The notes: generated by a model not told the origin, from the letters alone. DNA of 64,000 nt from Candidatus Poriferihabitaceae bacterium (GCA_965206445.1 CBDBJR010000002.1:520719-584718), one strand, 5' to 3'. Counted from the first letter of the stretch, positions 11,534 through 40,372 are shown. Made by a program: numbers and translations.

Positions 11534-11545
11534 CCGCACCCATCG

Positions 11546-12957: not shown

Positions 12958-12974
12958 GTTAGCGCGCGTTTCCC

Positions 12975-13490: not shown

Positions 13491-13493
13491 CGG

Positions 13494-14816: not shown

Positions 14817-14822
14817 GCCCAC

Positions 14823-14933
14823 CGCCGCCTTCGGCGGGAATTATGCCGCCTACGGCGGGAATTAGGAATTAGGAATGAAATCCGCCTGCGGCGGGAATTA
14901 GGAATTAGGAATTAGGAATTAGGAATTAGGAAA
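14823..14933. repeat. Three GC hairpins (ccgccNNcggcgg), each followed by tandem ggaatta heptamers (2.5 and 5.5 copies)
   Basis: Read directly: ccgccttcggcgg, ccgcctacggcgg and ccgcctgcggcgg, then (ggaatta)n. Located just after the dctM stop. Confidence 0.9.
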
Positions 14934-15893: not shown

Positions 15894-16358
15894 CCGCCGC
15901 CGCGGCGAGCAGAAATCCCCGCCCGGGCATAACCGCACCCCACCCGCGAACGGCCGGACGCCGGGGGCGGGCGCCGCCATTCGGATAAGCAACGCCGACC
16001 CTGTTGCGGGCCGGAGCGCTACGCAGGGCGGCCAGCGGGCGTCAACCGCAATGACGCCCGCCCGCATAAAGCGATACCGCCCATCCGAAACCCGCTTCCG
16101 ATGGGGACACTTCGGACCGTCAGCCCGACAACAACCCCAGCGCGCACCGGCGCTGCAATCCCCGCTGCAATCCCGGCCCACCAAACACCCCGGGCGCCTT
16201 GTCGTATGGGCATACAGGAACTTACGCCGGTCAAAAAATGATAGTATTTGACCCCATCCAGATGCCGCACAACCGGCGTGTGCACACGGCCCGGCAAACC
16301 GCGGCGCAGGGTGCCGGCCACCACGCGCATCCGGGCCGCCACTACCCATCACAAACCC

Positions 16359-18426: not shown

Positions 18427-18467
18427 AAAATTTGATACAGATTAAACGAGGGCTAAAAGGTGACATC

Positions 18468-19562
18468 ATGAATAAACCAGAAAATCTTAAATATATTGAG
18501 GAACAAACGTACATAGAAGATAGCAGTCCAGAGATACCGCCTCCTGACGTTGTCGCATACAATGAACTCCGGTCGTGTGCGGACCTCCATCGCATGGAGA
18601 CAAGTGGAATATTGAATATTCAACCTGAATTCCAACGCGAACTTGTATGGAAAAAGCCAGCTCAGACAAGATTTATCGATTCGCTAATTAAACAGCTTCC
18701 TATTCCAAGCATGTGCTTCAGTCTTGATTTTAAAGAACAAAAGTGGCAGGTAATCGATGGTCTCCAGAGAATGTCAGCAATTTGTAGTTTCCTTTCTGGA
18801 GAGCCGTGGAAATTATCACGTCTTGATGATATAGATAAAAAGATTTCAGGTCAGTCAGTCTCAGCTTTTCATAGTGATACATCTGATCTCCACCAATACT
18901 TGACTCGTGTTCAAAACCTGGCTCTCCCAATTACAGTAATACGGTGCGATTACTCTAATCAGTTGCATACCTATTATTTATTCACCATCTTTCATAGACT
19001 CAACACAGGAGGAATGAAGCTAAACAATCAAGAAATTCGGAACTGTATTTACTCAGGAGAACTGAATAATCTCTTAAAAAAGCTTGATCAATATCCGGAT
19101 TGGAAACGATTAAACCGTATTAAAAAGACAGTCGTATATCGATTCTCAAAACAGGAGCTTATTCTTCGCTTATTTGCATTTCACGATTCGTACAGGTCAT
19201 ACAATGGTCGATTGGCAAGTTTTTTAAACGAGTATATGAACAAGTATCGCAACTTACCAGAGAAGAAGAAAAATAAGAAACAAGACCTTTTTTGCCGCAC
19301 TGTAAATATAGTATACAGAAAGATATTCGAAGGAACTCCGCCACAGAAGCAATCTTTGTCCGTATTAGAAGCCTTACTTGTTGGTGTCTCTTTTAATCTG
19401 GATTATTTGGAGGCCATACCAAAAACAAAAATTATAAAACTGTACAAAGATCTTCTTAAACATGAAGAATTTTCGGAAGGAAAACTTATTGAGGGCCTCT
19501 CTGGCAAGCCACGAGTAATTGGTCGAATTGAAGCTGCACGTACGATATTTTCTGAAAAATGA
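18468..19562 (+). CDS. DUF262 (ParB-like/GmrSD N-terminal type) domain protein
   Basis: QPEFQRELVW and DGLQRM motifs (DUF262 FQR...W and DGQQR). No DUF1524/HNH tail. AT-rich. RBS aaaggtg. Confidence 0.75.
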   Translation: MNKPENLKYIEEQTYIEDSSPEIPPPDVVAYNELRSCADLHRMETSGILNIQPEFQRELVWKKPAQTRFIDSLIKQLPIPSMCFSLDFKEQKWQVIDGLQRMSAICSFLSGEPWKLSRLDDIDKKISGQSVSAFHSDTSDLHQYLTRVQNLALPITVIRCDYSNQLHTYYLFTIFHRLNTGGMKLNNQEIRNCIYSGELNNLLKKLDQYPDWKRLNRIKKTVVYRFSKQELILRLFAFHDSYRSYNGRLASFLNEYMNKYRNLPEKKKNKKQDLFCRTVNIVYRKIFEGTPPQKQSLSVLEALLVGVSFNLDYLEAIPKTKIIKLYKDLLKHEEFSEGKLIEGLSGKPRVIGRIEAARTIFSEK

Positions 19563-20053
19563 AAAACATTGAAAAGACGGAAATCGGTCAAAACCTAGAA
19601 ACTCTAAACATACTTTACACCAACAGTGCAAATAACAGAGAGGCTCTTTTTTACTCGAAACTTGCTGTGCTTGAACTTTGCGCGTGGCTTGAAGAAACCA
19701 TGGAAGAAGTGGTTCGGTCTTACGTTGTTCTTAATATAAAAAATAAAGAAAACCAAAATAGTATAGAAAACTCCATTATCAGACCAAATCATGGATTTGA
19801 CTATAAAGGTAATTTTCGGAAGATGCTTATTCGTGTTGTAGGGTTTCGAGGAATTGAGACTATGGAGGACGCAGCAGGTTCGGCTACAATCTATACTCTC
19901 GAAAGTACTACACGTACACTTAAGAAAACCAGAGACAGGCAAGTACACACTTATTTTAATACCACTATGAACTTGGAAGCCCCATCGATAATTATGGGAC
20001 ACTTTAATAATATGTTTCAAGCACTTGAGAAATTTCAGGATGCCATGAAATAA
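19559..20053 (+). CDS. Small HEPN-like protein (Rx4H motif), partner of DUF262
   Basis: 164 aa, all-helical by composition, with RDRQVH matching Rx4H near the C-terminal third. The start overlaps the DUF262 stop (ATGA). Confidence 0.45.
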   Translation: MKNIEKTEIGQNLETLNILYTNSANNREALFYSKLAVLELCAWLEETMEEVVRSYVVLNIKNKENQNSIENSIIRPNHGFDYKGNFRKMLIRVVGFRGIETMEDAAGSATIYTLESTTRTLKKTRDRQVHTYFNTTMNLEAPSIIMGHFNNMFQALEKFQDAMK

Positions 20054-20143
20054 GAATAGTTATAAAAAATTAGGATATTCTTTCAGGTTAAGGTTAATTA
20101 AATTAGTGAAAATAATAAGGCTAAAATAGCAAAGGTACTGAAA

Positions 20144-20446
20144 TTGCACCTCTATCCAAAATATAAAAATTCCATTGTTAAGTGGCTGATGGAAGCACCA
20201 GAGTATTCGAAAGTACGGCAGCTACGGGCTGTATCAGAGATGGGCGTCAGAAACGACGATAAACATTTCAGGGATAACTATGAGATTAGTTTTACTCGTT
20301 ATTTTTATAAGCCGCAGCCAATGCGGACGCTGGAAGAAATTCGGGCGGATATTCTGGCGTTGGAGCAGGAAAGTGGCGGGTTGGAAGCAATTATTGGGCG
20401 TGGAGAACTCAACATGAACTTGCTGGAGAAAATAAAAAATGACTAA
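20144..20446 (+). pseudogene. Chimeric scar: hsdS 5' stub fused to a copy of the hsdM 3' end
   Basis: N-terminal LYPKYKNSIVKWLMEAPEYSKVRQL resembles an HsdS N-terminus. 20279-20373 is near-identical to hsdM 18204-18298 (EISFTRYFYKPQPMRTLEEIRADILALE). Confidence 0.75.
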
Positions 20447-21896
20447 TGGCGCGCAAACATTCGACGACCACCAAAAAGGGATTCTGCTGAAACGGGCGGA
20501 ACCTGAAGTCAAGACTGATGAACCATGGGCAGATGACGCTTTAGATCGTAGTGAAGTGGCAAACGCGCTGACCAATCTTGTTTCGGGGCAGAAAGACCCG
20601 CTGGTTATAAGTCTGGATGGATACTGGGGAACAGGCAAAACATTTTTACTCAAGCGCTGGCAGGTGGAATTGGAAAAACAAGGCTTTCAGTCTATTTATT
20701 TCAATGCATGGGAAGACGACTTTTGCGACGATCCTCTTGTGGCCATCATAGGGCAACTATCAGCTAGCCTGGAAAAAGATTTTAAGAATATAGTAGATGA
20801 TATCAAAAAAGATATAGTACCTTTACTTGGAAAAATCCTTCTTAGCGTTATACACAATACCGCTGGTATAGATTTCGGTGGTGTCACTCTTAAAGAGCCC
20901 ACAGACTCGATTTTAGAAAAATATGCATCTCAAATAAAGCAGAAAAAAGAAATAAAAGAGCATTTGCAGAAAATATCAGACGAAGTAATGAAGAATACTA
21001 AGCAACCTTTGGTATTTATTATTGATGAACTTGATCGATGTCGCCCAACTTTCGCTATCGAGCTTTTGGAAAGAGTAAAACATATATTCGATATTCCCGG
21101 CATGGTTTTTGTTTTTGGTATCAATCAGGGCGAGCTGTGTTTAGCAATTAAATCAGTTTATGGGGACATTGATGCTGATACCTATCTTCGACGTTTTTTT
21201 GACATACCTTTATTATTGCCGAAAGCAAACATAGAGAATTTTTGTAGACATTTGATTGAGAAATATGAATTGGAAGAGTTTTTTTCGAAACTACGCATAA
21301 GTGCAAGTGACCCTATTCATCGGGAAGATTTTTATACTTTTAATACTTTCTTTCCTTCTTTCTATAATAATCTGGATTTGTCTCTTCGAGATGTTGATCA
21401 TTGTATCAGGGCATTTTCCTTTGTAGGAAAAAGTATTAAGAAAGGGCAAAAGATGTTTCCATTTCTTGTTGGCGCATTAATTGCCCTGCGAGTAAAAAAT
21501 CAGACCTGTTATCGAGATTTTATTACACAGAAATGTTTTGGAGCCGATGTTATGGATTACATCAATGAGGTGATGTCTGATGAAAATATAAATAGCAAAT
21601 TAGGAGACGCTCTCCGTGTTATAGAAATTATTTTGTATGTTACAGATCGTGGGCGCGGACGTGATTCTCTCGGACAATTAAGAATTTTTCTGGATGGCGA
21701 TGAGCCATCTCATCCAGAATATTTATCTAAAAAAATAAAAAAAATATGCAAAGAACAAGATTCAAATAAACAAATAATAGAGGCTTTTGATTTGCTGATA
21801 TCTGATAGCTGGGTTATCCGTGAAACTCCAGAGCTCAAGTATGTTTCCAGTTTGATTGAGCTTACTCAAATAACTACGCAGAGTAAGCCATGGTGA
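20439..21896 (+). CDS. KAP family P-loop NTPase
   Basis: Walker A in the KAP context (ISLDGYWGTGKTFLLKRW) and Walker B FIIDELDRC. 485 aa, AT-rich. Confidence 0.75.
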   Translation: MTNGAQTFDDHQKGILLKRAEPEVKTDEPWADDALDRSEVANALTNLVSGQKDPLVISLDGYWGTGKTFLLKRWQVELEKQGFQSIYFNAWEDDFCDDPLVAIIGQLSASLEKDFKNIVDDIKKDIVPLLGKILLSVIHNTAGIDFGGVTLKEPTDSILEKYASQIKQKKEIKEHLQKISDEVMKNTKQPLVFIIDELDRCRPTFAIELLERVKHIFDIPGMVFVFGINQGELCLAIKSVYGDIDADTYLRRFFDIPLLLPKANIENFCRHLIEKYELEEFFSKLRISASDPIHREDFYTFNTFFPSFYNNLDLSLRDVDHCIRAFSFVGKSIKKGQKMFPFLVGALIALRVKNQTCYRDFITQKCFGADVMDYINEVMSDENINSKLGDALRVIEIILYVTDRGRGRDSLGQLRIFLDGDEPSHPEYLSKKIKKICKEQDSNKQIIEAFDLLISDSWVIRETPELKYVSSLIELTQITTQSKPW

Positions 21897-22087
21897 AATT
21901 GCTTCCTTTCTCAGAATATGAAGATTCCATTGTTGGGTGGCTGATGGAAGTACCAGTGCATTGGAAAGTACAGCGGCTATGGATTGTCCTAAGGATGCGC
22001 ATCAGTAATTTAGACAAACACACTACGGATGGCGCGATTCCTGTTCGGCCCTGTAGCTTTGCTAAAAGGGTGATTTTTAACTGTTAG
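21890..22087 (+). pseudogene. hsdS 5' stub
   Basis: LLPFSEYEDSIVGWLMEVPVHWKVQRL parallels the N-terminus of the intact HsdS (KPYSKYKDSDVEWLGKISAHWKRL) and the stub at 20144. It is only 65 codons long. Confidence 0.65.
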
Positions 22088-22210
22088 GAATTCTTTAGTG
22101 TATGAGCCGAAGATATTTTCGGGAAAGGTAAGGATAATATGACAGATTATTTGTCTTTGGTTTCACTTCCAGATTAGGAATGTTAGACAAATATACTAAC
22201 CGCAAAATAT

Positions 22211-22786
22211 GTGCAGCAACCAGTAATTGAAGAAAAAATTGTGCGTGAAAAAACTTTTAAAGCATTAATAATTGGAGTAGTTGCCTCAGTATTGGGAGGG
22301 ATTTTTCTGCTATATGGCACAGAGTACATTGTCAAACCTTTTTTGTGGCTTAAGTCTGCTATTCTATGGTCTTGGAACTTTTTGATTTCATCTCATTCTC
22401 TGCCCGGATGGGTTTTGCTGATTGTTTTTTTGTTTGCTTCTCTGTTTATTATTTTTGCAGTGATTTATTTTTTGGTGAAGATCGATAAAAATTCTGAATC
22501 TAAACATCTACTGTATACCAAAGATATTATGTTTGGAGCAATATGGCGATGGAAGTGGATGGGAAATCAAATATCTAATATTTGGTGCTATTGCCCTTAC
22601 TGTGACACAATGCTGGTTTATGATGAGCATTGGGGAGAAACATACTTTAGATGTGAGAATTGCAATAACTCTGTTATAGCTACTTTTGACTGCTCTAAAA
22701 ACCGAGCGATACGTAGAGTCGCGCATCAGATTGATAGAAAACTCCGGTCGGGTGAATTTAGAAAAATTATCACATCTAACCAATAA
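22211..22786 (+). CDS. Membrane protein with C-terminal zinc ribbon (hypothetical)
   Basis: 2-3 N-terminal TM helices, then CYCPYC...(17)...CENC. GTG start, uncertain. Confidence 0.45.
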   Translation: MQQPVIEEKIVREKTFKALIIGVVASVLGGIFLLYGTEYIVKPFLWLKSAILWSWNFLISSHSLPGWVLLIVFLFASLFIIFAVIYFLVKIDKNSESKHLLYTKDIMFGAIWRWKWMGNQISNIWCYCPYCDTMLVYDEHWGETYFRCENCNNSVIATFDCSKNRAIRRVAHQIDRKLRSGEFRKIITSNQ

Positions 22787-22796
22787 CAAATAACCC

Positions 22797-24083
22797 ATGA
22801 ATACTCATCTTAAACCTTACTCAAAATACAAAGACTCTGACGTTGAGTGGCTGGGTAAAATATCGGCACACTGGAAACGATTGCCGGGTCGTGTGTGCTA
22901 TCGGGAGAAAAAGTCACCAAATACCGGCCCCCAAATTGACACAGTGCTGTCACTCAGCTTCGGCAAGATTGTCATAAAGCCACCTGAAAAGTTACATGGG
23001 CTAGTCCCGACATCTTTCGAGACATACCAGTTAATTGAACCCAATGATATTGTCATCCGCCCAACAGATCTACAAAATGACTGGAACAGCCTCCGGTTTG
23101 GTTTGGCGAACACAACAGGCATTATCACATCTGCCTATATTTGCCTCCGCACGAGTTCTGTACTCACACCACAATACGGACACCTACTGCTTCATACCTA
23201 CGATTTGAAAAAAATATTTTATGGATTAGGCTCTGGTTTGCGACAAAATTTAGCTTGGCGTGACTTTAAATATTTACCTTGCTTAGTTCCACCCCTACTC
23301 GAACAAACCGCTATTGTCCGTTATCTTGATTATTTCGACCGGCGGATTCGGCGTTATATTGATGCCAAGCAAAAGTTGATCAAGCTGTTGGAGGAGCAGA
23401 AGCAGGTCGTCATTCACCGCGCCGTTACTCGGGGGCTTGATCCTGATGTTCCTCTTAAGCCCTCCGGTGTTGAATGGTTGGGGGAGGTGCCGGAGCATTG
23501 GGAAATACGGCGGCTAAAGCTTTTGGCGCAAATTAGGACTGGTGGACATGATACTGTGGACAGAGTGGAAGAAGGAGCGTACCCGTTTTTTGTCCGCTCT
23601 CAGAATATTGAGCGGATCAACAGTTATTCGTTCAACGGTGAGGCTGTATTGACTGCTGGTGATGGTGCAGGAGTCGCCAAGGTGTTTCATTACTTCGTCG
23701 GCAAGTTTGATTACCACCAACGAGTCTACAAGTTCAGTAATTTTAGAGAAATCACAGGAAAATACTTCTTCTACTTCTTTAGGAATACACTCCGGTTTGA
23801 AGCATTCCGAGAAACAGCAAAGTCAACCGTCGATTCACTTCGACTTCCAATGCTCCAGAACTTTCCTGTTCCATTACCACCGCATAAAGAACAGGAGAAG
23901 ATCGTTGAGGTTATTGAATCTGATACTGCCGACATTGATGCCACGATTGAACGCGCCCGCCGCGGAATCGACCTGCTGCAAGAATACCGCACCCGCCTGA
24001 TTGCCGACGTGGTTACCGGCAAACTCGACGTGCGTGAAGTGGCGGCGGCGTTGCCCGATGATCCGGCGCCGCTATCGGGCTAG
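22797..24083 (+). CDS. hsdS: Type I restriction-modification system, specificity subunit
   Basis: Two TRD halves, each introduced by an (S/D)xVEWLGxxxxHW block, with conserved coiled-coil spacers (LLEEQKQVVIHRAVTRGL; LLQEYRTRLIADVVTGKLDVRE). Confidence 0.88.
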   Translation: MNTHLKPYSKYKDSDVEWLGKISAHWKRLPGRVCYREKKSPNTGPQIDTVLSLSFGKIVIKPPEKLHGLVPTSFETYQLIEPNDIVIRPTDLQNDWNSLRFGLANTTGIITSAYICLRTSSVLTPQYGHLLLHTYDLKKIFYGLGSGLRQNLAWRDFKYLPCLVPPLLEQTAIVRYLDYFDRRIRRYIDAKQKLIKLLEEQKQVVIHRAVTRGLDPDVPLKPSGVEWLGEVPEHWEIRRLKLLAQIRTGGHDTVDRVEEGAYPFFVRSQNIERINSYSFNGEAVLTAGDGAGVAKVFHYFVGKFDYHQRVYKFSNFREITGKYFFYFFRNTLRFEAFRETAKSTVDSLRLPMLQNFPVPLPPHKEQEKIVEVIESDTADIDATIERARRGIDLLQEYRTRLIADVVTGKLDVREVAAALPDDPAPLSG

Positions 24084-24322
24084 TGCTGGCCGAATGCAGG
24101 CGCCATTGCGCATGAATTCGGTCAGATACACACTCCAGACATTCAGATAGCGGATTTTTTGCGGGTACATCCGCTTTCCGTCGGCACCGGGAAGCACAAT
24201 GGTGCTGCATTGCTCCTTCGGTGCCGGGCACGTTATAATCGACCTGACGAGACAGCCTTCGTCAACCGGAATACGCCATATTATTGATTTGAGTACGTTA
24301 GAGCAGGAATCGGGGGAACACC

Positions 24323-27300
24323 ATGCTTATTGTTAAACCCTATGGCAGGAGTGCCATAACCAAACCCGTTTCGGGGGAGTCTCGCAGAGTACTGCGTAAA
24401 CGCGATGGGGGTATCGATCGTGATTTCAAGGAGTTCTGCCGGGAACACCCCGATCTGGTTCTTGCCCAATGGATTTCTGTTGTCGATAAAATTGCCCGCA
24501 AACCGTCCGGTCGAGGCCAGCCGCCGGAAGCCCAGCGCAAGTTTCGCCAGGAGATTGGCGCAGTGCTTTGGCCGTATCTGACTTCAAAGGAGATATTGTC
24601 GCCGGAGTTGGAGCAGAAATTCTGGTCAAAGGTTCATCCCTATCCGGAGCCTGATAGCAAGGATAAGCCCAGGAAAGCCAAACCGAAAGTGGCTAAATCG
24701 CACCCGAAAAAGACCGGTGGCGAGGCCAAACCCGAGGGCAGGTGGTACAAACGCTTCCTGGGCGATGCGGAACCTGATAACGCGGTTCTCAGTGATCTGC
24801 CGGACAAAATCTTTGCGCATCTGTATGAAACGGAATACCGGATTGCGCCCACCCGCCCGAACAAATCCAAAGGCTTGATTGCCGCACGCGCCGAGTCAAT
24901 TTCCGGTAACCTGTTGCAGCGATCATCCCTGTCCGGGTGTGACTGGACTGAAGACGACGAGGAAGCATACGCCCGGGGCGGCAATGTCGCCGCAGAGATA
25001 AAGAGGAAGATCAAGGAACTGGAGGTGCCTGCAAAGGGTAAGAAGTCGCAGAGGGCATCCCTGCGTGATGTCGCTCCTGTGCTGTTCGGGCAATATGGGC
25101 GGCTGTTCCACGGCGAAAATGATACCGCGCTATCCGTCGCCGAGGCCGGGCAAAAACATCCCGGCCTCTTGGCATTGCATCAGGCGGTGAAAGAGGCGTA
25201 CAAGCGCCGTCTGTCCGGCCACAAATCTGCCCGGCATAAATCGGTTGCCGAAGTGCTGCCCGATAGCATGGACGCGCTTTTTAGGCTGGTTCATAGCGCC
25301 CGGCAGAATGCCCGGGTCAGCAATTTGATCCGAATCGGAAAGATTGCCCATTATGAAGCCGCCCCGAATAGTATCGTCGATGACTGGCCGGCAGATCGTC
25401 TTGCTGCCAGTTTGTATTGGACCAGCGATGGTCAGGCGGAAATCAAACGGACTGATGCGTTTGTCCGTGTCTGGCGCACGGCACTGGTGCATGCGGCCCT
25501 GACGCTGACTGATTGGGCTGACCCGGAAGGCAGGATTGCCGACGATATATTAATCAGCGACAGCAAGGAAGAAGTACTCGACATGCTTGATAGTGCTGCT
25601 TTCGACCGCAAGGCATCTGTCCTGTTTGGCAGCCGAGCGCAGGATCTGACATGTCTGCCGCTTGAGAAGAAAAAAGAATGCTGGTCAGCCATTTGCACAG
25701 CAGTAGCACAGCTCCGTAACAGCAGTTTCCATTTCAAGGGGATTGACCGGTTTGCACAATCCATCAATGACGCTGCCACGGGCGATTTCCAGTTCGATTT
25801 TCTTGTCGACCTGTACAAACAGGACCGGGCTGCCCGGTTGAAATATCTGGTCGAAACACTGCAAGGTGTCAAGGCAGACCGGCACCTCGACAAGGGGCAA
25901 TTCAAACAGCTCATTCTGGAGATAAGCACCGGTTCACCCCGCATGATTCCGTTGCCGCGATTTCAGCGGGTGTTGGTGCGTTACAGGGACGCATTCTGGT
26001 CAAAAGAATCTTCTGTTGTGAAACTGCCTGCACCCGGGAATCGTCAGAAAATGGAAGAGTCCCCGGCGCTTCGCTGCCAGTACACATGCCTGAAACTGCT
26101 CTACGAGCGCGCTTTTCCGGCCTGGCTCAAAGACAGTGATACGGGCACATTGAGACGCTGGATTGACCGCGCCGTTAAGCGCGCCACCTCGGATGCACAA
26201 AAGATCAATCGTGATGCGTCGGCTGTTGCGCGCGCTACCGATATAATCTGCCTGCATGACGGCGACACGATTGCTACTTTCCTTGACCGTCTGGCGGCAG
26301 AGACGGCGACGGAAATCCGCGTACAAAAGGGATACGACCCTGATCCCGAAGCCGCCCGCAAGAAGTCGGCTTACCTGGACAATCTGAATTGTGACGTGAT
26401 GCTCCAGGCGTTTGGCGACTTTCTCAATGAGAAGAAATTCGACTGGTTGCTTGAACTGCAGGACGGTCAAGAGGATATGCCGCGATATGATCTGCCTGAG
26501 CTGCCCCCGAACGAAACCGGGATACAAGCATGGCAGCGTGTTCTTTATATTGTTTTGCACCTCGTCCCGGTTGGTGAAGTTTCCCGCCTGCTCCATCAGA
26601 TTCAAAAGTGGAACATTCTTACCCTGAAATCTGCGCACGGGGGCCGGAGTCGGCAGCCTGATGCGGCACGTTCGGATGAAGCTTTTGCCCCCTTGACGGA
26701 TGCTGACTGTCTGTTCGAGGTGCTCACGCTGTATCTCGATATGCACGACGCCAAGTTCGAGGGCGGCGAGAGCCTGATGAGAGGCGATGCGCTGCCTCGC
26801 TGGTTTGAATCTGAACAGGATTGCAAAAAGATTTTTCCCGAACAAGATGGGGCGCTTGATGACGCGCACCTGCCGCTTCGCGGTCTGCGGGAAATGCAGC
26901 GGTTTGGCGCCTTGAAATGCCTGGAACCGATTTTCGAAGCCCATAAGATCACCGGCGAGGAAGTGTCCGGGTATTTGGAATTGAATAGAGGGGAGGGCGG
27001 TGAATCGAAAATCGTGCGCGCCCAGAAGGTGCGTGAGACGCTGCACGCGGATTGGACCAGCAAGCCCAAAGATTTTGACAAAGACAAGAAGAAGCAGCGG
27101 TGTTATTGGGATGCGCTGGCAACGGTCACGCAGCACCGGCATTTTGCTAACCGCGTCCACCTGATTGATCATGTTCAGCTGTATTATCTCCTGATGCAGA
27201 TTTTGGGCAGGCTGGTTGATTTTGCCGGTTTGTGGGAGCGCGACCTTTATTTCACAGCGCTTGGCCTGATGATCGAGAAAAATGAGCAGCCGGATTCGAT

Positions 27301-27907
27301 ATTCAAGCCGAAAGGGATTAAGCGCCTGAAACAAGGCAGGATTGTGGAGGCGCTTCGTGAAATTATTGATGAGGATACCGGGCGGGAGATAAAACGGGAG
27401 ATAGAGCGACTCTTTGATTCGAATTTCACTTCCCGAGACAGAAATATCCGTATCAGGAACAATTTCATGCACTTCAATATGCTGCGCTCAGGGCGAAACC
27501 CCGACGCCGGTACAGCGGCAGTGCCCCTGAACCTGACCGCACTGGTAAACGACTGCCGATCACTTATGGGTTATGATCGCAAGCTGAAGAATGCAGTTTC
27601 TAAATCTGTGAAGGATTTATGTGCGCGTGAAAAGCTCGATTTGTGCTGGAAAACCGATCCCAGGCATTGTCTGACCCAGGCCACCGTCAACACGAAACAG
27701 GCCCGGCACCTCAAGACAAAATGTATCAGGGAGAATCTGTGCGGAATACACTACATAAAGATGGCTGCGGATCTTTTTGCCGGTAGAGAATTGTCCAGCA
27801 AGGATGTCACGTCAAAAGGCTTTGATGAAGCTGAACAGGAAAAGCAAAAAAATCGGCCAAAAAAGCGAGAAAAAAACGCCAGACAAGGCGGTCAACGAAG
27901 AAGATGA
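24323..27907 (+). CDS. cas13a: Cas13a (C2c2)-like type VI-A CRISPR effector, two HEPN RNase motifs
   Basis: 1194 aa. Rx4H motifs RNSSFH (R465/H470) and RNNFMH (R1045/H1050), spaced as in characterised Cas13a. It is directly followed by a co-oriented array whose repeat resembles Cas13a repeats. Confidence 0.8.
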   Translation: MLIVKPYGRSAITKPVSGESRRVLRKRDGGIDRDFKEFCREHPDLVLAQWISVVDKIARKPSGRGQPPEAQRKFRQEIGAVLWPYLTSKEILSPELEQKFWSKVHPYPEPDSKDKPRKAKPKVAKSHPKKTGGEAKPEGRWYKRFLGDAEPDNAVLSDLPDKIFAHLYETEYRIAPTRPNKSKGLIAARAESISGNLLQRSSLSGCDWTEDDEEAYARGGNVAAEIKRKIKELEVPAKGKKSQRASLRDVAPVLFGQYGRLFHGENDTALSVAEAGQKHPGLLALHQAVKEAYKRRLSGHKSARHKSVAEVLPDSMDALFRLVHSARQNARVSNLIRIGKIAHYEAAPNSIVDDWPADRLAASLYWTSDGQAEIKRTDAFVRVWRTALVHAALTLTDWADPEGRIADDILISDSKEEVLDMLDSAAFDRKASVLFGSRAQDLTCLPLEKKKECWSAICTAVAQLRNSSFHFKGIDRFAQSINDAATGDFQFDFLVDLYKQDRAARLKYLVETLQGVKADRHLDKGQFKQLILEISTGSPRMIPLPRFQRVLVRYRDAFWSKESSVVKLPAPGNRQKMEESPALRCQYTCLKLLYERAFPAWLKDSDTGTLRRWIDRAVKRATSDAQKINRDASAVARATDIICLHDGDTIATFLDRLAAETATEIRVQKGYDPDPEAARKKSAYLDNLNCDVMLQAFGDFLNEKKFDWLLELQDGQEDMPRYDLPELPPNETGIQAWQRVLYIVLHLVPVGEVSRLLHQIQKWNILTLKSAHGGRSRQPDAARSDEAFAPLTDADCLFEVLTLYLDMHDAKFEGGESLMRGDALPRWFESEQDCKKIFPEQDGALDDAHLPLRGLREMQRFGALKCLEPIFEAHKITGEEVSGYLELNRGEGGESKIVRAQKVRETLHADWTSKPKDFDKDKKKQRCYWDALATVTQHRHFANRVHLIDHVQLYYLLMQILGRLVDFAGLWERDLYFTALGLMIEKNEQPDSIFKPKGIKRLKQGRIVEALREIIDEDTGREIKREIERLFDSNFTSRDRNIRIRNNFMHFNMLRSGRNPDAGTAAVPLNLTALVNDCRSLMGYDRKLKNAVSKSVKDLCAREKLDLCWKTDPRHCLTQATVNTKQARHLKTKCIRENLCGIHYIKMAADLFAGRELSSKDVTSKGFDEAEQEKQKNRPKKREKNARQGGQRRR

Positions 27908-27972
27908 AACATATTTTTTTTTATTGCAAAAATCAGGATTTTCTTTATGTATTATTGCGTTATCAGTTAGCT
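27908..27972 (+). promoter_or_regulatory. CRISPR leader (AT-rich) of array 1
   Basis: 65-nt AT-rich stretch between the cas13a stop and the first repeat. The degenerate repeat is at the far end of the array. It is duplicated at 29860-29924. Confidence 0.6.
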
Positions 27973-28869
27973 GTTGAAGATGACCCCCATATGAAGGGGG
28001 ACTACACCGACAGATGTTCCCAATCCCACCGATTCTGCAGTTGAAGATGACCCCCATATGAAGGGGGACTACACCTAAAACGGCGTTATATCGCATCTGA
28101 CGGCCGTTGAAGATGACCCCCATATGAAGGGGGACTACACCCGTAATCCAGTTGGATCAAATTCTATTGCTGTTGAAGATGACCCCCATATGAAGGGGGA
28201 CTACACCTGCGTCCGACTGCACCAATTGCGCGGTCAGGTTGAAGATGACCCCCATATGAAGGGGGACTACACCTGCGTCCGACTGCACCAATTGCGCGGT
28301 CAGGTTGAAGATGACCCCCATATGAAGGGGGACTACACCCTTGCAAGGATGATGTTGTTTTGCTCGTTTGTTGAAGATGACCCCCATATGAAGGGGGACT
28401 ACACCCACAACGTCTTTGCGGTGCTCGTTCGCTTTCGTTGAAGATGACCCCCATATGAAGGGGGACTACACCTGATCAACCCGCCGATTAAATTCCGGCG
28501 TCGTTGAAGATGACCCCCATATGAAGGGGGACTACACCAGCGCGGACGGTGTATAGAAGGTGGTCGTAGTTGAAGATGACCCCCATATGAAGGGGGACTA
28601 CACCTGTATGGGCGTGATACTGCGCATTTGCACCGTTGAAGATGACCCCCATATGAAGGGGGACTACACCATCACCACCATTATTTCGCTGGCCGGCCTG
28701 GTTGAAGATGACCCCCATATGAAGGGGGACTACACCCGGATCCATTGACTCCATGCCTTCCCTATAGTTGAAGATGACCCCCATATGAAGGGGGACTACA
28801 CCCAAGACGTTATTTTTGTAATCTGTTTTTCAAGTTGAAGATAACCCCCATATAAAGAGGAACCACACG
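27973..28869 (+). CRISPR. CRISPR array 1: 14 x 36-nt repeat (gttgaagatgacccccatatgaagggggactacacc), 13 spacers of 30-31 nt
   Basis: All repeats were located by eye at 27973, 28040, 28106, 28172, 28238, 28304, 28370, 28437, 28503, 28569, 28635, 28701, 28767 and 28834. The last repeat is degenerate. Spacers 4 and 5 are identical. Confidence 0.97.
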
Positions 28870-29779
28870 ACGTAGCCAGAAAAGCAGGAACGAGCACTAC
28901 TTTGTTGCTCTCTGTGAGCCGAACAGCGTTACGGAGAAGATTGCCGCTGAGCGGCCAGCGGAGTATGGTGTCAGTTAGTTGTATGGCGAGGTGCGGGATT
29001 ACAACCGCGCACGCTCATCGACTTAAACCTTCCGGGGTGGAATGGTTAGGGGAGGCGCCGGCGCATTGGGACGTTTTTCGCCGCAAAACACAGGCGGCAA
29101 ACCGTACTGAGCGAATATCCATACATGAAAACACATCGTCCATCATCATACGGAATCCCGAGGCTGGCCACCGAAGCCGGCCCTGTTGGCCATCCCGGGC
29201 CGGCTGATTTGCCGGGGAAATGCGCACTCCATTGTCGCCATCAGCGTATAAATTTGTTTACCCGTTGTTTAGTTTTCGAGAATTTCTCGGAAAAAAATAC
29301 CCTGAATACAGTCAGTTAGGTCTGAAAAGTTGTTTACCCGTTGTTTTATTATCGGTCGATACAACCAGATATAACCTATCGTAGCGGGCAGGAGTCAATC
29401 GTACATCTGGCAGCGGATTGACACGGATTCTGTTGCGTGGGCAGAGCAAAACAGCAAGCTGTTGGGCGGTTACCTTATCAAATGCCGGTTCACGTGCTGT
29501 CGATGCCGGTGCCAACCCGGATCAATCAGGTAAGATTAATCGGACGGCTGTGCGGGCAAAACAGGGGACATCCTGTCAATATCGCAAACATAAATATCGC
29601 AAACGGGTGGAATGGCTTATGGCGGAAAGTTTTCCGTGGGATATGATTGCGCGTATTGGCGTACACTCGCGCAATGCTGGTGATCAGGCCACGGCGGCTC
29701 AAGCCGTCGGGCAGAAACCGACAGTCCAGATTTTCTCTGAGTGGTATTATTAGCGCGGGGGCAAACATGATCCATTTTA
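28870..29779. repeat. Post-array segment, copy 1 (non-coding; contains an hsdS-like fragment)
   Basis: Homologous to 30426-31336. 29021-29071 encodes LKPSGVEWLGEAPAHWD, matching the HsdS central block. It ends with the first 5 codons of the macro gene (ATGATCCATTTTAAA, ATG at 29767). Confidence 0.85.
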
Positions 29780-29924
29780 AAGCTGAACAGGAAAAGCAAA
29801 ATAATCGGCCAAAAAAGCGAGAAAAAAACACCAGACAAGGCGGTCAACGAAGAAGATGAAACATGTTTTTTTTTATTGCAAAAATCAGGATTTTCTTTAT
29901 GTATTATTGCGTTATCAGTTAGCT
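29780..29924 (+). pseudogene. Duplicated cas13a 3' end (~26 codons) plus leader copy
   Basis: Near-identical to 27828-27972. Together with the macro start codons it forms a chimeric 30-codon ORF, 29767-29859 (MIHFKAEQEKQNNRPKKREKNTRQGGQRRR). Confidence 0.85.
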
Positions 29925-30425
29925 GTTGAAGATGACCCCCATATGAAGGGGGACTACACCGCTCTCCACATGATCTAACTTACCATTAAAGTTGAAGATG
30001 ACCCCCATATGAAGGGGGACTACACCCCAAGTTCGGTAGTATTTTTAATCCAGAAGGTTGAAGATGACCCCCATATGAAGGGGGACTACACCAGTGTCGA
30101 TTGGATTAGTCGGCCATGTCATAGTTGAAGATGACCCCCATATGAAGGGGGACTACACCAGTGTCGATTGGATTAGTCGGCCATGTCATAGTTGAAGATG
30201 ACCCCCATATGAAGGGGGACTACACCTCAACCGAGCGGTATGTGACCGGGCTTGCGGTTGAAGATGACCCCCATATGAAGGGGGACTACACCAGCTGAAC
30301 CGCAATATGAGCGTGTCCGTCAGTTGAAGATGACCCCCATATGAAGGGGGACTACACCACGGGCGCGCGCGTCCCCTGATTTATCAAGAGTTGAAGATGA
30401 CCCCCATATAAAGGGGAACTACACG
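29925..30425 (+). CRISPR. CRISPR array 2: 8 x the same 36-nt repeat, 7 spacers of 30-31 nt
   Basis: Repeats at 29925, 29991, 30057, 30124, 30191, 30257, 30323 and 30390. The last repeat is degenerate. Spacers 3 and 4 are identical. No spacer is shared with array 1. Confidence 0.97.
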
Positions 30426-31322
30426 ACGTAGCCAGAAAAGCAGGAAGGAGCACTACCTTGTTGCTCTCTGTGAGCCGGGCAGCGTTACGGAGAAGGCTGC
30501 CGCTGAGCGCCCAGCGGGCTATGGTGTCAGTTAGTTATATGGCGAGGTGCGAGATTACAACCGCGCACGCTCATCGCCTTAAACCTCCCGGGGTGGCGTG
30601 GTTGGGGGAGGCGCCGGCGCATTGGGACGTTTTTCGCCGCAAAACACCGGCGGCAAACCGTACTGAGCGAGTATCCATACATGAAAACACATCGTCCATC
30701 ATCATACGGAATCCCGAGGCTGGCCACCGAAGCCGGCTCTGTCGGCCATGCCGGGCCGGCTGATTTGCCGGGGCAATGCGCACGCCATGGTCTCCATCAG
30801 CGTATAAATTTGTTTATACGTTGTTTAGTTTTCGAGGATTTCTCAGAAAAAAATACCCTGAATACAGGCAGTTAGGTCTGAAAAATTGTTTACCCGTTGT
30901 TTTATTATCGGCCGATACAACCAGATATAACCTATCGTAGCGGGCAGGAGTCAATCGTACATCTGGCAGCGGATTGACACGGATTCTGTTGCGTGGGCAG
31001 AGCAAAACAGCAAGCTGTTGGGCGGTTACCTTATCAAATGCCGGTTCACGTGCTGTCGATGCCTGTGCCGACCCGGATCAATCAGGTAAGATTAATCGGA
31101 CGGCTGTGCGGGCAAAACAGGGGACATCCTGTCAATATCGCAAACATAAATATCGCAAACGGGTGGAATGGCTTATGGCGGAAAGTTTTCCGTGGGATAT
31201 GATTGCGCGTATTGGCGTACACTCGCGCAATGCTGGTGATCAGGCCACGGCGGCTCAAGCCGTCGGGCAGAAACCGACAGTCCAGATTTTCCCTGAGTGG
31301 TATTATTAGCGCGGGGGCAAAC
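30426..31322. repeat. Post-array segment, copy 2
   Basis: Homologous to 28870-29766. The last ~340 nt show only 3 mismatches; the first ~530 nt are clearly more diverged. Confidence 0.85.
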
Positions 31323-31805
31323 ATGATCCATTTTAAAACGGGCAATATCCTGACCGAAGACGCCGAAGCAATCGTCAACACGGTCAACTGCGTCGGCGTC
31401 ATGGGCCGCGGTATCGCGCTGCAATTCAAACAGAGTTTTCCCGACAACTTCAAGGCGTATGCTGATGCGTGTAAGCAGAAAGCAGTACAGCCTGGGCGCA
31501 TGTTTATCTTTGCAACCGGGCAAACCACCAACCCCCGCTATATCATCAATTTTCCGACCAAGCGGCACTGGCGCGAAATGAGCCGGATGGAAGATATTGA
31601 GGCCGGGTTGTCGGCGCTGGTCAAAGAGATTGAAAAACGCAGGCTCCGTTCAATCGCGATTCCGCCCCTTGGCAGCGGTCTGGGCGGGCTGGACTGGGCG
31701 CAGGTTCGCCCGCGCATAGAAAAAGCGCTCCGGGGCTGTGACGACCTTCGGGTCATTGTCTATACACCGCACCCGGTACCGAAACCGGACAAGATGGCGT
31801 ATTAA
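31323..31805 (+). CDS. Macro domain (ADP-ribose binding/hydrolase) protein
   Basis: 160 aa. IVNTVNCVGVMGRGIALQFK and IAIPPLGSGLGGLDW match macro-domain signature blocks. The start is ATG 31323. Confidence 0.75.
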   Translation: MIHFKTGNILTEDAEAIVNTVNCVGVMGRGIALQFKQSFPDNFKAYADACKQKAVQPGRMFIFATGQTTNPRYIINFPTKRHWREMSRMEDIEAGLSALVKEIEKRRLRSIAIPPLGSGLGGLDWAQVRPRIEKALRGCDDLRVIVYTPHPVPKPDKMAY

Positions 31806-31844
31806 CACCATACCAACGGAACCCCGCAGGACTGGAAAGCAACG

Positions 31845-34800
31845 ATGCCCACCGACACCACCGAACGCGGTCTTGAGCGCCTGATCTGCGCGGCGCTGAC
31901 CGGCCACCCCGGCGATGCCGACTCAGCCGGCGGCACAGACTACAAAGTTGCCCTGCGCCCGACGCACTATTCCACCGTTTGGCTGTACGGCGATGCCAGC
32001 GATTACAACCGCGAATACTGTGTGGACTTGCGGCAGTTCTCGGCTTTCCTGCAGGCAACGCAGCCGCAGGTCGCCGCGGCGCTCGCCCTTGACGAGGACG
32101 GCGCGGCGCGGCGCAGCTTCCTGGCGCGACTGGAAGGCCAGATTTCCCGGCGCGGCGTGATTGATGTCTTGCGCAACGGCGTAAAACACGGCCCGCACCA
32201 GCTCGATCTCTTTTACGGCACGCCGTCGCCGGGCAACGAGAAAGCCCGGACGCTGTATGCCGACAACCGCTTTTCGGTGACCCGGCAGTTGCGCTACAGC
32301 AACGACGCCACGCGGCTGGCGCTTGACCTGGGGCTGTTTGTCAACGGCCTGCCGGTGGCAACGTTTGAGCTCAAGAACAGCCTGACCAAACAAACCGCGG
32401 CGGATGCGGTGCGGCAGTACCGGCGCGACCGCGACCCGCGTGAAAAGCTGTTCGCGTTTGGCCGCTGCGTGGTGCATTTTGCGGTGGATGAGAACGAGGT
32501 GTATTTTTGCACCCACCTCACCGGGAAAACGTCCTGGTTCCGGCCTTTCAATCGCGGCTGTAACGACGGCGCCGGCAATCCGCTCAACCCCAACGGCCTC
32601 AAGACCGACTACCTGTGGCGCGAGGTGCTGACCCGTCGGCGCCTTACCGATATCCTCGAAAACTACGCCCAGGTCGTCAAACTCAAAGACAACACCACCG
32701 CGACCACGAAAAAGGTGCAGATCTGGCCGCGCTACCACCAGCTCGACGTGGTGCGGCAACTGCTGGCGGATGTCAGGGCAAACGGGGCGGGGCGGCGTTA
32801 TCTGATCCAGCACTCGGCGGGCAGCGGCAAATCCAACTCGATCGCGTGGCTGGCGCATCAACTGATCGGCCTGGAGAAAGACGGCGGGACGGTGTTCGGT
32901 TCGATCATCGTCGTCACCGACCGGGTGCTGCTTGACCGCCAGATCCGCGACACCATCCGGCAGTACGCCCAGGTGAACGCGACCGTAGGCCACGCCGAGC
33001 GCTCGGGCGATTTGCGCAGGTTGATTGAAAGCGGCAAGCAGATCATCATCTCGACGGTGCAAAAATTCCCGTTCATCCTTGACGAGATCAGCAGCCAGCA
33101 ACGCGACCGCCGGTTTGCCATCATCATCGACGAGGCGCATTCAAGCCAGGGCGGCAAAACCTCGGCGGCGATTTCGCAGGCGCTTGCGCACGACGGTGAA
33201 GCGGGGGAGGAGGACACCTTTGAGGATCGGATCAACCGCTTGATAGCGGCGCGCCGGCTGCTGCCCAATGCCAGCTATTTCGCCTTCACCGCCACGCCCA
33301 AGGGGAAAACGCTGGAGGTCTTCGGCCGGCCGGAGCCGCAGGCGGACGGCACAACCCGACACCTGCCGTTCCATACCTACACGATGAAACAGGCCATTCA
33401 GGAAGGCTTTATTCTGGACGTGCTGGCACACTATACCCCGGTCAACAGCTACTATCGGCTGGTCAAAACGATAGAACCCGATCCGCAATTCGACACCCGG
33501 CGCGCGCAGAAAAAACTGCGCCGCTACGTGGAGGGGCATGAGCACGCTATCCGGCTCAAAGCGGAGATCATGGTGGATCATTTTCATCAGCAGGTGTTCG
33601 GTCCGCGCCGGGTCGGTGGGCAGGCGCGGGCGATGGTGGTGACCGGCGGCATCGCGCAGGCAATCCGGTACTTCCACGCCATCAGCGACTACCTGACCGA
33701 GTGCAACCGCCCGTATCGCGCCATCGTCGCGTTCTCCGGCGAGCACGATTACGGCGGCGCGAATGTGACCGAGGCATCGCTCAACGGCTTCGCCTCGAAC
33801 AAAATTGCCGATTGCATCCGGGCCGAGCCGTATCGTTTTCTGGTCTGCGCCGACAAGTTCCAGACCGGCTATGATGAACCGCTGCTGCACACGATGTACG
33901 TCGACAAAACCCTTTCCGGCATCAAGGCGGTGCAGACACTGTCGCGCCTCAACCGGGCGCATCCGAAAAAACACGATGTCTTTGTGCTCGATTTTATGAA
34001 CCAGACCGAGCTGATTCGAGAGGCGTTTTCCGACTATTATCGCGCGACGATTTTGTCCGCCGAAACCGACCCCAACAAACTGCACGATCTGCAAGCGGAC
34101 CTGGACGGCGCGCAGGTGTACTCGCAGCAGCAGATCGACGATTTCGCCGAGCGCTACCTCGGCGGGGCGAAACGCGAGCAGCTCGACCCGCTGCTCGACG
34201 CCTGCGTGGCGGTCTATCTCAACCAGCTCGACGAGGACGGCCAGGTGGATTTCAAGGGCAAGGCCAAGGGCTTCGTGCGCACCTATGGCTTCCTTTCCTC
34301 GCTGCTGCCCTATACCAACCTGCAGTGGGAGAAGCGCTCGATCTTTCTGAACTTCCTGATCTCCAAACTGCCGGCGCCGCAAGAGGCGGATCTCTCCAGG
34401 GGCATCCTCGATGCGATCGACATGGACAGCTATCGGGCGGAGAAACAGGCGATGCAGCAGATCCGGATTGCGGACGAGGACGCCGAGATCGACCCGGTGC
34501 CGGCCAGCGCCGGCGGCCACCGCACCGAGCCCGAGTTGGATCGGCTGTCAAACATCATCCGGAGCTTCAACGAGCACTTCGGCAACATCACCTGGGGGGA
34601 CACCGACCGGGTGATGCAGCTGATCACCGAAACCGTGCCCGTACAGGTGGCGAAGAACCGCGCTTACCGGAACGCACAACAGAACTCGGACAAGCGCAAT
34701 GCCCGCATCGAACACAGCAAGGCACTGTCGCGCGTGATGACCGCGATAATGAGAGACGATACCGAGTTGTTCCGCCAATTCATGGACAACCCGGACTTCA

Positions 34801-34856
34801 AGCGCTGGATGACCGACACGGTGTTTGACCTCACCTACCAAAGAGGCGCGCCCTGA
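31845..34856 (+). CDS. hsdR: Type I restriction enzyme, restriction/helicase subunit
   Basis: 1003 aa. N-terminal PD-(D/E)xK block (LDLGLFVNGLPVATFELKN), Walker A HSAGSGKSNS, DEAH box IIIDEAHSSQGG and a helicase C region. Confidence 0.9.
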   Translation: MPTDTTERGLERLICAALTGHPGDADSAGGTDYKVALRPTHYSTVWLYGDASDYNREYCVDLRQFSAFLQATQPQVAAALALDEDGAARRSFLARLEGQISRRGVIDVLRNGVKHGPHQLDLFYGTPSPGNEKARTLYADNRFSVTRQLRYSNDATRLALDLGLFVNGLPVATFELKNSLTKQTAADAVRQYRRDRDPREKLFAFGRCVVHFAVDENEVYFCTHLTGKTSWFRPFNRGCNDGAGNPLNPNGLKTDYLWREVLTRRRLTDILENYAQVVKLKDNTTATTKKVQIWPRYHQLDVVRQLLADVRANGAGRRYLIQHSAGSGKSNSIAWLAHQLIGLEKDGGTVFGSIIVVTDRVLLDRQIRDTIRQYAQVNATVGHAERSGDLRRLIESGKQIIISTVQKFPFILDEISSQQRDRRFAIIIDEAHSSQGGKTSAAISQALAHDGEAGEEDTFEDRINRLIAARRLLPNASYFAFTATPKGKTLEVFGRPEPQADGTTRHLPFHTYTMKQAIQEGFILDVLAHYTPVNSYYRLVKTIEPDPQFDTRRAQKKLRRYVEGHEHAIRLKAEIMVDHFHQQVFGPRRVGGQARAMVVTGGIAQAIRYFHAISDYLTECNRPYRAIVAFSGEHDYGGANVTEASLNGFASNKIADCIRAEPYRFLVCADKFQTGYDEPLLHTMYVDKTLSGIKAVQTLSRLNRAHPKKHDVFVLDFMNQTELIREAFSDYYRATILSAETDPNKLHDLQADLDGAQVYSQQQIDDFAERYLGGAKREQLDPLLDACVAVYLNQLDEDGQVDFKGKAKGFVRTYGFLSSLLPYTNLQWEKRSIFLNFLISKLPAPQEADLSRGILDAIDMDSYRAEKQAMQQIRIADEDAEIDPVPASAGGHRTEPELDRLSNIIRSFNEHFGNITWGDTDRVMQLITETVPVQVAKNRAYRNAQQNSDKRNARIEHSKALSRVMTAIMRDDTELFRQFMDNPDFKRWMTDTVFDLTYQRGAP

Positions 34857-34963: not shown

Positions 34964-35053
34964 TGGCGGAGAGGGTGGGATTTGAACCCACGAATCCCGT
35001 GAAGGATTGCCGGTTTTCGAGACCGGTGCATTCGACCACTCTGCCACCTCTCC
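34964..35053 (-). tRNA. tRNA-Ser (anticodon CGA)
   Basis: The reverse complement folds as a class II tRNA: 7-bp acceptor stem GGAGAGG/CCTCTCC, anticodon stem CCGGT/ACCGG with loop CTCGAAA, long variable arm, T-arm GGGTTCAAATCCC and encoded CCA. Confidence 0.9.
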
Positions 35054-39658: not shown

Positions 39659-40155
39659 CTACCCGTCGCCATACAAATACGCGATCACCTGATCAGCCAG
39701 TACATCCGCATCCCCGCCGGCGCTGTTCAGCACAATTTCGGCGTTTTCCGGCGGCTCGTACGCCGAGTCGATGCCGGTAAAGTTTTTTAGCGCCCCGCTG
39801 CGCGCCTGCTTATACAACCCCTTCGGGTCGCGCTGCTCGCACACGGCCAGCGGGGCATCGACAAAAATCTCAACAAACTCACCCGGCGCCATCAACGCGC
39901 GCGCCATTTGCCGCTCGGCGCGAAACGGAGAAATAAACGCCGCCAATACAATCAGCCCGGCGTCGAGCATCAGCCGGGCGATCTCGGCAATGCGGCGGAT
40001 ATTTTCCACCCGGTCGGCGGCGGTAAACCCCAGATCCTTGTTCAACCCATGGCGCAGGTTGTCGCCGTCCAGCAGATAGGTGTGCTTGCCCAGAGCGTGG
40101 AGTTTTTGCTCCAGGCGGTCGGCGGTGGTCGATTTGCCGTCGCCGGACAGACCCG
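39659..40155 (-). pseudogene. Duplicated 3' fragment of the APS kinase domain of the CysNC-like gene
   Basis: 39603-40155 is near-identical to 40308-40860. The encoded C-terminal 128+ aa match the CysNC-like C-terminus. The P-loop reads SGDGKST instead of SGAGKST, and nothing upstream belongs to the gene. Confidence 0.85.
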
Positions 40156-40372
40156 GGATAACTGGAACCTCCCTCTCCCTCCGGGAGAGGGCCGGGGTGA
40201 GGGCCGGCGCTACCCGGCACCGGACAGACCCGGGATAACCGGAACCTCCCTCTCCCTCCGGGAGAGGGCCGGGGTGAGGGCCGCCGCTACCCGTCGCCGG
40301 ACAGACCCGGGATAACCGGAACCTCCCTCTCCCTCCGGGAGAGGGCCGGGGTGAGGGCCGCCGCTACCGGTC
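40142..40372. repeat. 77-bp tandem repeat x3, each unit containing a REP-like palindrome
   Basis: Units start at 40142, 40219 and 40296. Unit sequence: ccggacagacccgggataaccggaacctccctctccctccgggagagggccggggtgagggccgccgctacccgtcg. Confidence 0.9.

Follow-up and report, generated by a model that had tools for sequence, protein, structure and literature searches.

The 64,000-nucleotide (nt) stretch of Candidatus Poriferihabitaceae bacterium analysed here (GCA_965206445.1 CBDBJR010000002.1:520719-584718; hereafter the window, with coordinates counted from its first letter and features on the + strand unless stated) carries a CRISPR locus with a cas13a effector gene, located inside a type I restriction-modification (R-M) operon between its hsdS and hsdR genes. 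Downstream of cas13a lie two leader-array modules, each followed by a flank of decayed gene fragments, and beyond them a shortened darG gene encoding a macro domain (Table 1). The encoded Cas13a matches the type VI-A model NF038188 over its full length with 722 bits (cut-off 150, E 1.5e-216), residues 1-1152 aligning with profile positions 1-1192. Its closest solved structure is 7os0 Cas13a (E 7e-98), the PDB match covering residues 533-975, and both HEPN R-X4-H motifs are intact (RNSSFH at 465-470, RNNFMH at 1045-1050). With these features and an adjacent array of ~36-nt stem-loop repeats, the locus is a bona fide type VI-A CRISPR-Cas13a system, predicted to act as an RNA-guided RNase and to process its own CRISPR RNA (crRNA). 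Exact-protein look-ups found no record of the window Cas13a, the window DarG or protein P0006.

The two modules belong to adjacent, head-to-tail direct copies of one segment, unit A (27828-29779, 1952 nt) and unit B (29780-31337), joined by a single new end-to-start junction. The original prediction of a block present twice in tandem is confirmed by direct reading and self-comparison, with the end of unit B at 31337. Each unit begins with the last 26 codons of cas13a including the stop, followed by a leader of 65 nt and an array, and ends with 947 nt of post-array sequence and the AA that completes five darG codons; the 947-nt stretch is measured from the degenerate terminal repeat, its final 13 nt are the darG start and the remaining 2 nt (AA) are the end of codon 5. 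Without the array, the duplicated block is ~1.1 kb long. The cas13a tail and leader (27828-27972 versus 29780-29924) differ at 3 of 145 nt (27850, 27878, 27913), and the post-array flanks (28833-29779 versus 30389-31335), 947 nt each and free of insertions or deletions, at 38 positions, of which the first 524 nt contain 35 and the remaining 423 nt only 3 (29508, 29514, 29736). The local difference between the two flank copies is 6.6% in the 5' part versus 0.7% in the 3' part. The uneven identity noted originally, with fewer mismatches beside darG, is therefore real, but the clean stretch spans ~420 nt rather than ~340 nt.

At the junction, the darG start ATGATCCATTTTAAA (29767-29781) abuts the cas13a-derived GCTGAACAGG (from 29782), placing the breakpoint between 29781 and 29782. 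A chimeric open reading frame (ORF) of 30 codons runs across it, with the translation MIHFKAEQEKQNNRPKKREKNTRQGGQRRR followed by the stop. On direct reading, both junction and ORF are as first described. The parental sequences read ...GATGAA/GCTG in cas13a and ...TTTAAA/ACGG in darG, the slash marking the break; they share AA only (27828-27829 / 29780-29781), and the AAAG microhomology initially proposed at the join is thus not upheld.

A genome scan with Cas13a returned 32 loci, and a separate protein search added closer relatives, 83-97% identical. Two arrays ~1.05 kb apart and exactly the same junction occur in five other strain contigs (L033, L034, L035, L036 and L037), all from one metagenome (ENA ERZ25069326); the name of the 3.9-Mb L033 contig, ctg78840_46x_c, indicates 46x coverage and a circular molecule. 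Across these strains cas13a diverges by 2-9% in nucleotide sequence, Cas13a protein identity is 83-97% and the spacer sets differ. Neither the 24-nt junction nor the exact 36-nt repeat had a match in JGI metagenome contigs, so the clade is known only from the ENA assemblies ERZ25069326 and ERZ25069323 and from GTDB metagenome-assembled genomes (MAGs).

Five more distant loci (L001, L002, L038, L039 and L040) have a single array and no junction; of these, L001 and L038 are syntenic with the window and single-copy. In L001, a MAG of Gammaproteobacteria with 78% Cas13a identity, the array is followed by intact darT (223 amino acids, aa), intact darG (359 aa) and hsdR, an order that represents the ancestral arrangement. 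The comparison with related strains proposed together with the original prediction thus recovers the two-array state in six strains and the one-array state in five outgroups. Since the junction and the two arrays are identical in arrangement in six strains and the outgroups have single arrays, the duplication is one ancestral event that became fixed in the clade. Synonymous divergence (dS) of hsdR is ~0.04 within the clade and 0.25 to the L038 lineage; on this scale, the duplication followed the split from the L038 lineage and occurred no later than the clade common ancestor.

Table 1. Features of the cas13a locus and of the surrounding R-M operon in the window.
Feature	Position	Strand	Description
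cas13a	24323-27907	+	1194 aa, type VI-A effector (NCBIfam NF038188); last 26 codons including the stop (27830-27907) form the left end of the duplicated unit
Leader A	27908-27972	+	65 nt, AT-rich, read from sequence; weak promoter-like element TTGCAA-N18-TGTATT, a putative promoter
CRISPR array A	27973-28868	+	13 identical 36-nt repeats and a degenerate terminal repeat (28833-28868); 13 spacers of 30-31 nt
Flank A	28869-29766	+	Decayed gene fragments: hsdR' (28931-29008), hsdS' (29022-29108), 17-nt direct repeats, darT pseudogene
darT pseudogene, flank A	29350-29424 and 29463-29750	+	Different frames, with a stop; tblastn with L001 DarT; Pfam DarT positions 101-201
Junction and chimeric 30-codon ORF	29767-29859	+	Five darG codons (29767-29781) and copied cas13a tail (29782-29859); AA at 29780-29781; junction identical in L033-L037
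Leader B	29860-29924	+	65 nt; 1 mismatch to leader A
CRISPR array B	29925-30424	+	7 identical repeats and a degenerate terminal repeat (30389-30424); 7 spacers
Flank B	30425-31322	+	Same scars: hsdR' (30487-30564), hsdS' (30578-30664), darT' (30921-30980 and 31019-31306)
darG remnant (macro gene)	31323-31805	+	160 aa; Pfam Macro; NCBIfam NF048014 DarG, 273 bits, profile positions 1-158 of 338
hsdR	31845-34856	+	Type I R-M; Pfam HSDR_N, SWI2_SNF2, ResIII, T1R_D3-like
hsdM	16248-18332		hsdM of relatives carry N6_Mtase/HsdM_N
hsdS	22797-24083		Pfam Methylase_S
tRNA-Ser(CGA)	34964-35053	-	Right edge of the defence island

Counting the degenerate terminal ones, array A has 14 repeats and array B has 8, and every non-terminal repeat is identical across both arrays and all strains. 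The repeat folds into a 5-bp stem with a 7-nt loop (-9.8 kcal/mol). Both arrays lie on the cas13a strand with the degenerate repeat at the far end, in the orientation that places the handle 5' of the spacer. The leader is near-invariant across 12 copies and recognisably conserved in the distant loci L001, L002 and L038. Arrays A and B of the window have no spacer in common and end in different degenerate terminal repeats, as originally predicted and as spacer comparison bears out; these terminal repeats nevertheless have three derived changes in common, and the degenerate terminal repeat therefore predates the copying of the block. Both arrays may be transcribed from their own leaders, and the crRNAs of both may be processed by the single Cas13a. 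A promoter and terminator scan gave a single match spanning the junction, no more than shuffled sequences give.

At the trailer end of array B, window spacers B3/B4, B5, B6 and B7 equal B3, B4, B5 and B6 of L034, and window B7 also equals B6 of L037. Leader-end spacers are unique to each strain and lie upstream of these old common ones in array B of the window, L034 and L037, so array B gained spacers after the strains split. Such an order is the signature of polarised acquisition after strain separation. No array A spacer is common to any two strains, and array A has thus turned over completely. In Listeria, spacer acquisition by a type VI-A array was shown to use a type II-C Cas1-2 encoded elsewhere (10.1101/2024.10.25.620265); by analogy, the arrays described here may acquire theirs in trans from a Cas1-Cas2 encoded outside the locus.

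Within the arrays, an adjacent repeat-spacer unit is doubled in three of 12 (window A4=A5, 28208-28303; window B3=B4, 30093-30190; L035 A4=A5). Also, two pairs of similar, non-identical spacers occur in the same register across arrays, L034 A10 with L036 B2 and L035 B3 with L036 A3, with 2/30 mismatches in one pair and 5/30 in the other; both members of the L035 B3/L036 A3 pair are trailer-most. These could be survivors from before the duplication, products of exchange between arrays, or the outcome of repeated sampling of one protospacer in diverged targets. A search for self-targeting in the window and 40 loci gave only 15-nt chance matches.

To describe the evolution of the flanks, six A copies and five complete B copies (the L037 B copy is cut by the contig end) were aligned. 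The 11 copies have 112 variable sites, none of them fixed between A and B and 40 polymorphic in both sets, versus a chance overlap of variable sites of ~6 (83 x 69 / 948), a figure that falls further if both alleles must also agree. In the four-gamete test 864 site pairs failed, giving a minimum number of recombination events (Rm) of 25. The absence of fixed differences, the 40 shared polymorphisms and the Rm of 25 imply that the A and B flanks behave as one recombining pool. A concrete breakpoint is found at array B of the window and L034, where the last four spacers are identical and the adjoining terminal repeats differ at 3/36 positions.

Mean pairwise difference is 5.1% in the 5' part and 2.0% in the 3' part among A copies, 4.5% and 1.65% among B copies, 5.6% and 1.75% between A and B of the same strain, and 5.2% and 1.9% between A and B of different strains. 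The similar 5' distances within (5.6%) and between strains (5.2%) fit both copy-to-copy and inter-strain exchange. Diversity steps down near 29356, where the darT remnant begins, from ~5% on the left to ~2% on the right; the left side resembles the ends of cas13a (dS 0.03-0.075) and the right side the four-fold sites of the darG-hsdR backbone (~2.5-4%). The contrast of 6.6% and 0.7% in the window is a draw from this population-wide contrast and not a genome-specific conversion tract. Partial gene conversion, as proposed in the original prediction, thus holds insofar as the flank copies exchange sequence, but the uneven identity is a property of the population and not of a tract in this genome.

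The pattern recalls concerted evolution by gene conversion, as in rRNA operons and tufA/tufB. As in those cases, there are no copy-specific fixed differences or copy-specific lineages, polymorphisms are common to the copies and four-gamete failures occur; in contrast to them, the copies are not homogenised within the genome (A and B differ by up to 6.6% locally), and exchange between strains seems as important as that between copies.

Taken together, an ancestral tandem duplication that left two independently evolving arrays serving one cas13a, with flanks that continue to exchange sequence, is the highly probable explanation of the locus. The first alternative of the original prediction, an old duplication followed by independent array evolution, is supported by the common junction, the single-array outgroups and the spacer patterns. 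In this scenario the clade ancestor would have carried a type VI-A locus between hsdS and hsdR, in an operon once endowed with DarT/DarG but with darT decayed by that time. One illegitimate recombination event, whether by template switch or by unequal sister exchange, at AA would then have joined darG codon 5 to cas13a codon 1169 and duplicated the cas13a tail, leader, array, scar DNA and darG start head to tail. Two leader-array modules would since have served one cas13a, gaining and losing spacers separately at their leader ends, and the non-coding flanks would have recombined between copies and between strains into one allele pool, giving the uneven identity seen in this genome. The alleles brought together in that first event may have differed slightly.

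Several points weigh against this explanation. The structure of the window is read from assembled sequence, with five independent contigs as indirect support, and a single metagenome assembly supplied five of the six two-array strains, with coverage as low as 4-8x for some. In a simple promoter scan neither leader scored 9 of 12 or higher, four spacers (the newest of A, the newest and oldest of B, and the duplicated B spacer) had no exact matches in viral contigs, and Cas1 was found neither in the island nor among the ~50 scanned ORFs (150 aa or longer) of the 64-kb window. The mixing of A and B flanks could derive in part from recombination with single-copy alleles of the population rather than from strict A-to-B gene conversion. 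In addition, the retention of both arrays in 6/6 sampled clade members is a small sample for arguing selection.

An assembly artefact, in which two single-array strain haplotypes were concatenated or a repeat was wrongly expanded, might be suspected from a source that resembles a metagenome with many co-existing strains of the locus, and from units that differ by 0.7-6.6%, like strain alleles. Yet only 2 nt are common at the join, so an overlap-based assembler could not have created it, and the same junction and two arrays were assembled independently in five contigs with different spacers, one of them the contig named as 46x and circular; we consider an artefact extremely unlikely. The lack of a common spacer between the arrays, the 6.6% divergence of part of the flank and the evident movement of cas13a alleles between lineages would also suit a recent event, the tandem insertion in this genome of a diverged allele from another strain. 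Such an insertion is very unlikely given that the junction is identical in six strains with an hsdR dS of ~0.04 and different cas13a alleles, which excludes the recombination of two diverged alleles raised in the original prediction as a recent event in this genome. Also, the four or five trailer-end spacers common to array B of the window and L034 place that array in the B position already in their common ancestor.

Array B might instead be an inert relic that persists by chance while array A alone is used, as its shorter length in four of six strains (window, L034, L035 and L037) and its old common spacers would allow. Its repeats are all perfect, however, leader B is conserved, and the unique leader-end B spacers of the window, L034 and L037 show acquisition after the strain split. 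Tandem duplications are generally unstable, and a recombining 1.1-kb direct repeat would be expected to collapse if neutral; an inert array B is accordingly very improbable. The same expectation, set against the presence of the repeat in 6/6 strains, makes selective retention of the two-array state possible. A broader proposal, in which the two-array state is kept by selection and cas13a, leader, array and hsdR-like scar form a recombination-mobile cassette that repeatedly enters type I R-M operons and passes among co-resident bacteria, including those of different phyla, is doubtful. If true, it would explain why cas13a is more diverse than the backbone within the clade and less diverged between species, and would account for the drop of flank diversity at the darT remnant and for a close cas13a match in a MAG labelled Dehalococcoidia (described below). 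The duplicated leader-array end would then double the highly expressed newest-spacer positions.

If the ancestral duplication is correct, the locus offers a clean, datable natural case of the origin of a second CRISPR array through one segmental duplication in non-repeat DNA. The evolutionary record is unusually complete, comprising the junction, the single-array state of the ancestor and six strains descended from it, and the aftermath is visible as separate spacer turnover in each array while the flanks keep exchanging sequence. The spacer gain seen in nature at a type VI-A locus for which no Cas1 was found in the island or the scanned ORFs bears on type VI acquisition. The event itself is an ordinary kind of genome change and leaves the accepted view of Cas13a function unchanged; some of the observations on the divergence and exchange of cas13a may deserve more attention than the duplication.

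The locus resembles the type VI-A loci of Leptotrichia, Listeria seeligeri and Rhodobacter capsulatus (7os0) in its single large effector with two HEPN R-X4-H motifs, 36-nt stem-loop repeat, 30-31-nt spacers, array placed 3' of cas13a behind a short leader, and lack of adjacent cas1/cas2. It differs from those studied in having two tandem leader-array modules from one traceable duplication, inside a type I R-M operon, and in a protein that is only distantly related. Several arrays with homologous repeats and leaders are found in one genome in E. coli and in the paired loci of Sulfolobus; one cas set likewise serves several homologous-leader arrays with different spacers there. To our knowledge, the origin of the arrays is no longer traceable in most multi-array genomes, whereas in this locus junction and microhomology, the ends of the copied genes and a single-array outgroup all show directly how the second array arose. 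A literature search found no paper describing this locus or a traceable duplication of leader and array in a type VI system. Within arrays, single spacer-repeat units are reported to have duplicated in tandem in Xanthomonas citri (PMC9504256); doubling of repeat units occurs here too, but the main event is a duplication of 1.1 kb plus the array through non-repeat sequence and not slippage at CRISPR repeats. Synergy between Cas13 and R-M has been described in Listeria, in a study that reports no close linkage (10.1101/2022.07.05.498905). Both systems occur in one organism in each case, with cas13a inside the R-M operon here, and such synergy is a plausible functional reason for the linkage.

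Comparison of the window with L033-L038 and L001 gives a ratio of nonsynonymous to synonymous divergence (dN/dS) of ~0.5 for cas13a versus 0.14-0.29 for hsdR, which points to relaxed or diversifying selection on cas13a. Within the clade, cas13a residues 300-1050 have a dS of 0.10-0.27 (0.15-0.27 in the centre) versus 0.03-0.075 at the ends, and between the window and L001 the dS of cas13a (0.235) is lower than that of hsdR (0.45). In the MAG labelled Dehalococcoidia (L002), cas13a and leader (9738-13649 versus window 24065-27972) are 88.5% identical in nucleotide sequence to this locus of gammaproteobacterial type, in a different R-M context and with nothing else in common, suggesting either that they moved recently between lineages or that the MAG was wrongly binned or labelled. 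The divergence pattern and the L002 match point to mosaic exchange of cas13a alleles among co-resident bacteria.

The flanks consist of scars of other genes. In searches (blastx) with the window HsdR and HsdS, hsdR' spans 26 codons similar to the N-terminus of HsdR and includes an in-frame stop, and hsdS' is a 29-codon fragment from the start of the second HsdS target-recognition domain. An hsdR-like scar also follows the array in L001 (14064-14178) and L038 (15002-15165), which places its origin before the duplication. L038 also shows a further, independent rearrangement at this site, where an rve-family transposase (13943-14920, - strand) lies between the single array and this scar. DarT residues ~84-108 and ~121-218 are kept, in two frames with a stop and with 41-43% identity to L001 DarT, and the same decayed darT is present in both flank copies; its decay thus preceded the duplication. 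The window DarG is 73% identical to residues 1-158 of the 359-aa L001 protein, with residues ~159-335 deleted, and the last 19 residues of L001 DarG match window 31796-31852 in another frame. The ORF ends at 160 aa with the macro domain and lacks the C-terminal DarT-binding domain. The window DarTG is therefore not a working toxin-antitoxin system. DarTG pairs inserted into type I R-M operons have been described before (Jankevicius et al. 2016, PMC5179494); darT-darG between hsdS and hsdR in L001 (14481-16213), both intact, matches it exactly, whereas the window retains a frameshifted 3' remnant of darT in two copies and the macro part of darG. L038 encodes a 152-aa macro protein and has no detectable darT.

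Variable sites in the flanks show no codon-phase bias (20/13/13 and 6/8/9), and the flank therefore evolves as non-coding DNA. A hidden gene in the flank was rejected, as stops occur in all frames, codon-phase bias is absent and a 101-aa ORF has no Pfam match. The chimeric 30-codon ORF was likewise rejected as a functional gene: it is intact in 6/6 strains, but exchange holds it similar to the cas13a tail and its conservation is thus uninformative on function; it is a by-product of the junction. Rfam models matched nothing in the region apart from the tRNA. A 17-nt direct repeat, TTGTTTACCCGTTGTTT, occurs twice per flank, 76 nt apart (29254-29270, 29330-29346, 30810-30826 and 30886-30902), nowhere else in the window, with 0 expected by chance, and otherwise only in the flanks of the clade strains.

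The R-M operon contains hsdM, hsdS and hsdR, with Pfam domains of hsdS and hsdR above gathering scores; matches to TIGR00497 and TIGR00348 are below their cut-offs, leaving the subfamily uncertain. The hsdM-hsdS interval of the window (18432-22786) encodes GmrSD_N, HEPN and KAP NTPase proteins, as in L034 and L037, and that of L033/L035 (3914-8440) KAP NTPase, DNA methylase and HATPase_c. Comparison of the window with L033-L036 gives an HsdS identity of only ~38%. The region is a hypervariable defence island. In the window clade as well as in L001 and L038, cas13a is situated between hsdS and hsdR; in L002, L039 and L040 it is upstream of hsdM-hsdS-(SIR2)-hsdR. For the distant Cas13a loci L003-L032, tblastn, an insensitive test, found little similarity to type I R-M, and no general link is claimed.

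Elsewhere in the window, a second, small defence-like cluster (3961-8399) encodes a HipA_C-like kinase, a HIRAN-domain protein, a SLOG-family protein (- strand) and an AAA_15/AAA_21 ATPase; a 176-aa ORF that matches no family comes after the ATPase gene. Also, tandem repeats occur at 40137-40375 (77 nt x 3.1, 95% matches, G+C-rich), 50377-50511 (22 nt x 6.2) and 10998-11082 (14 nt x 6.1).

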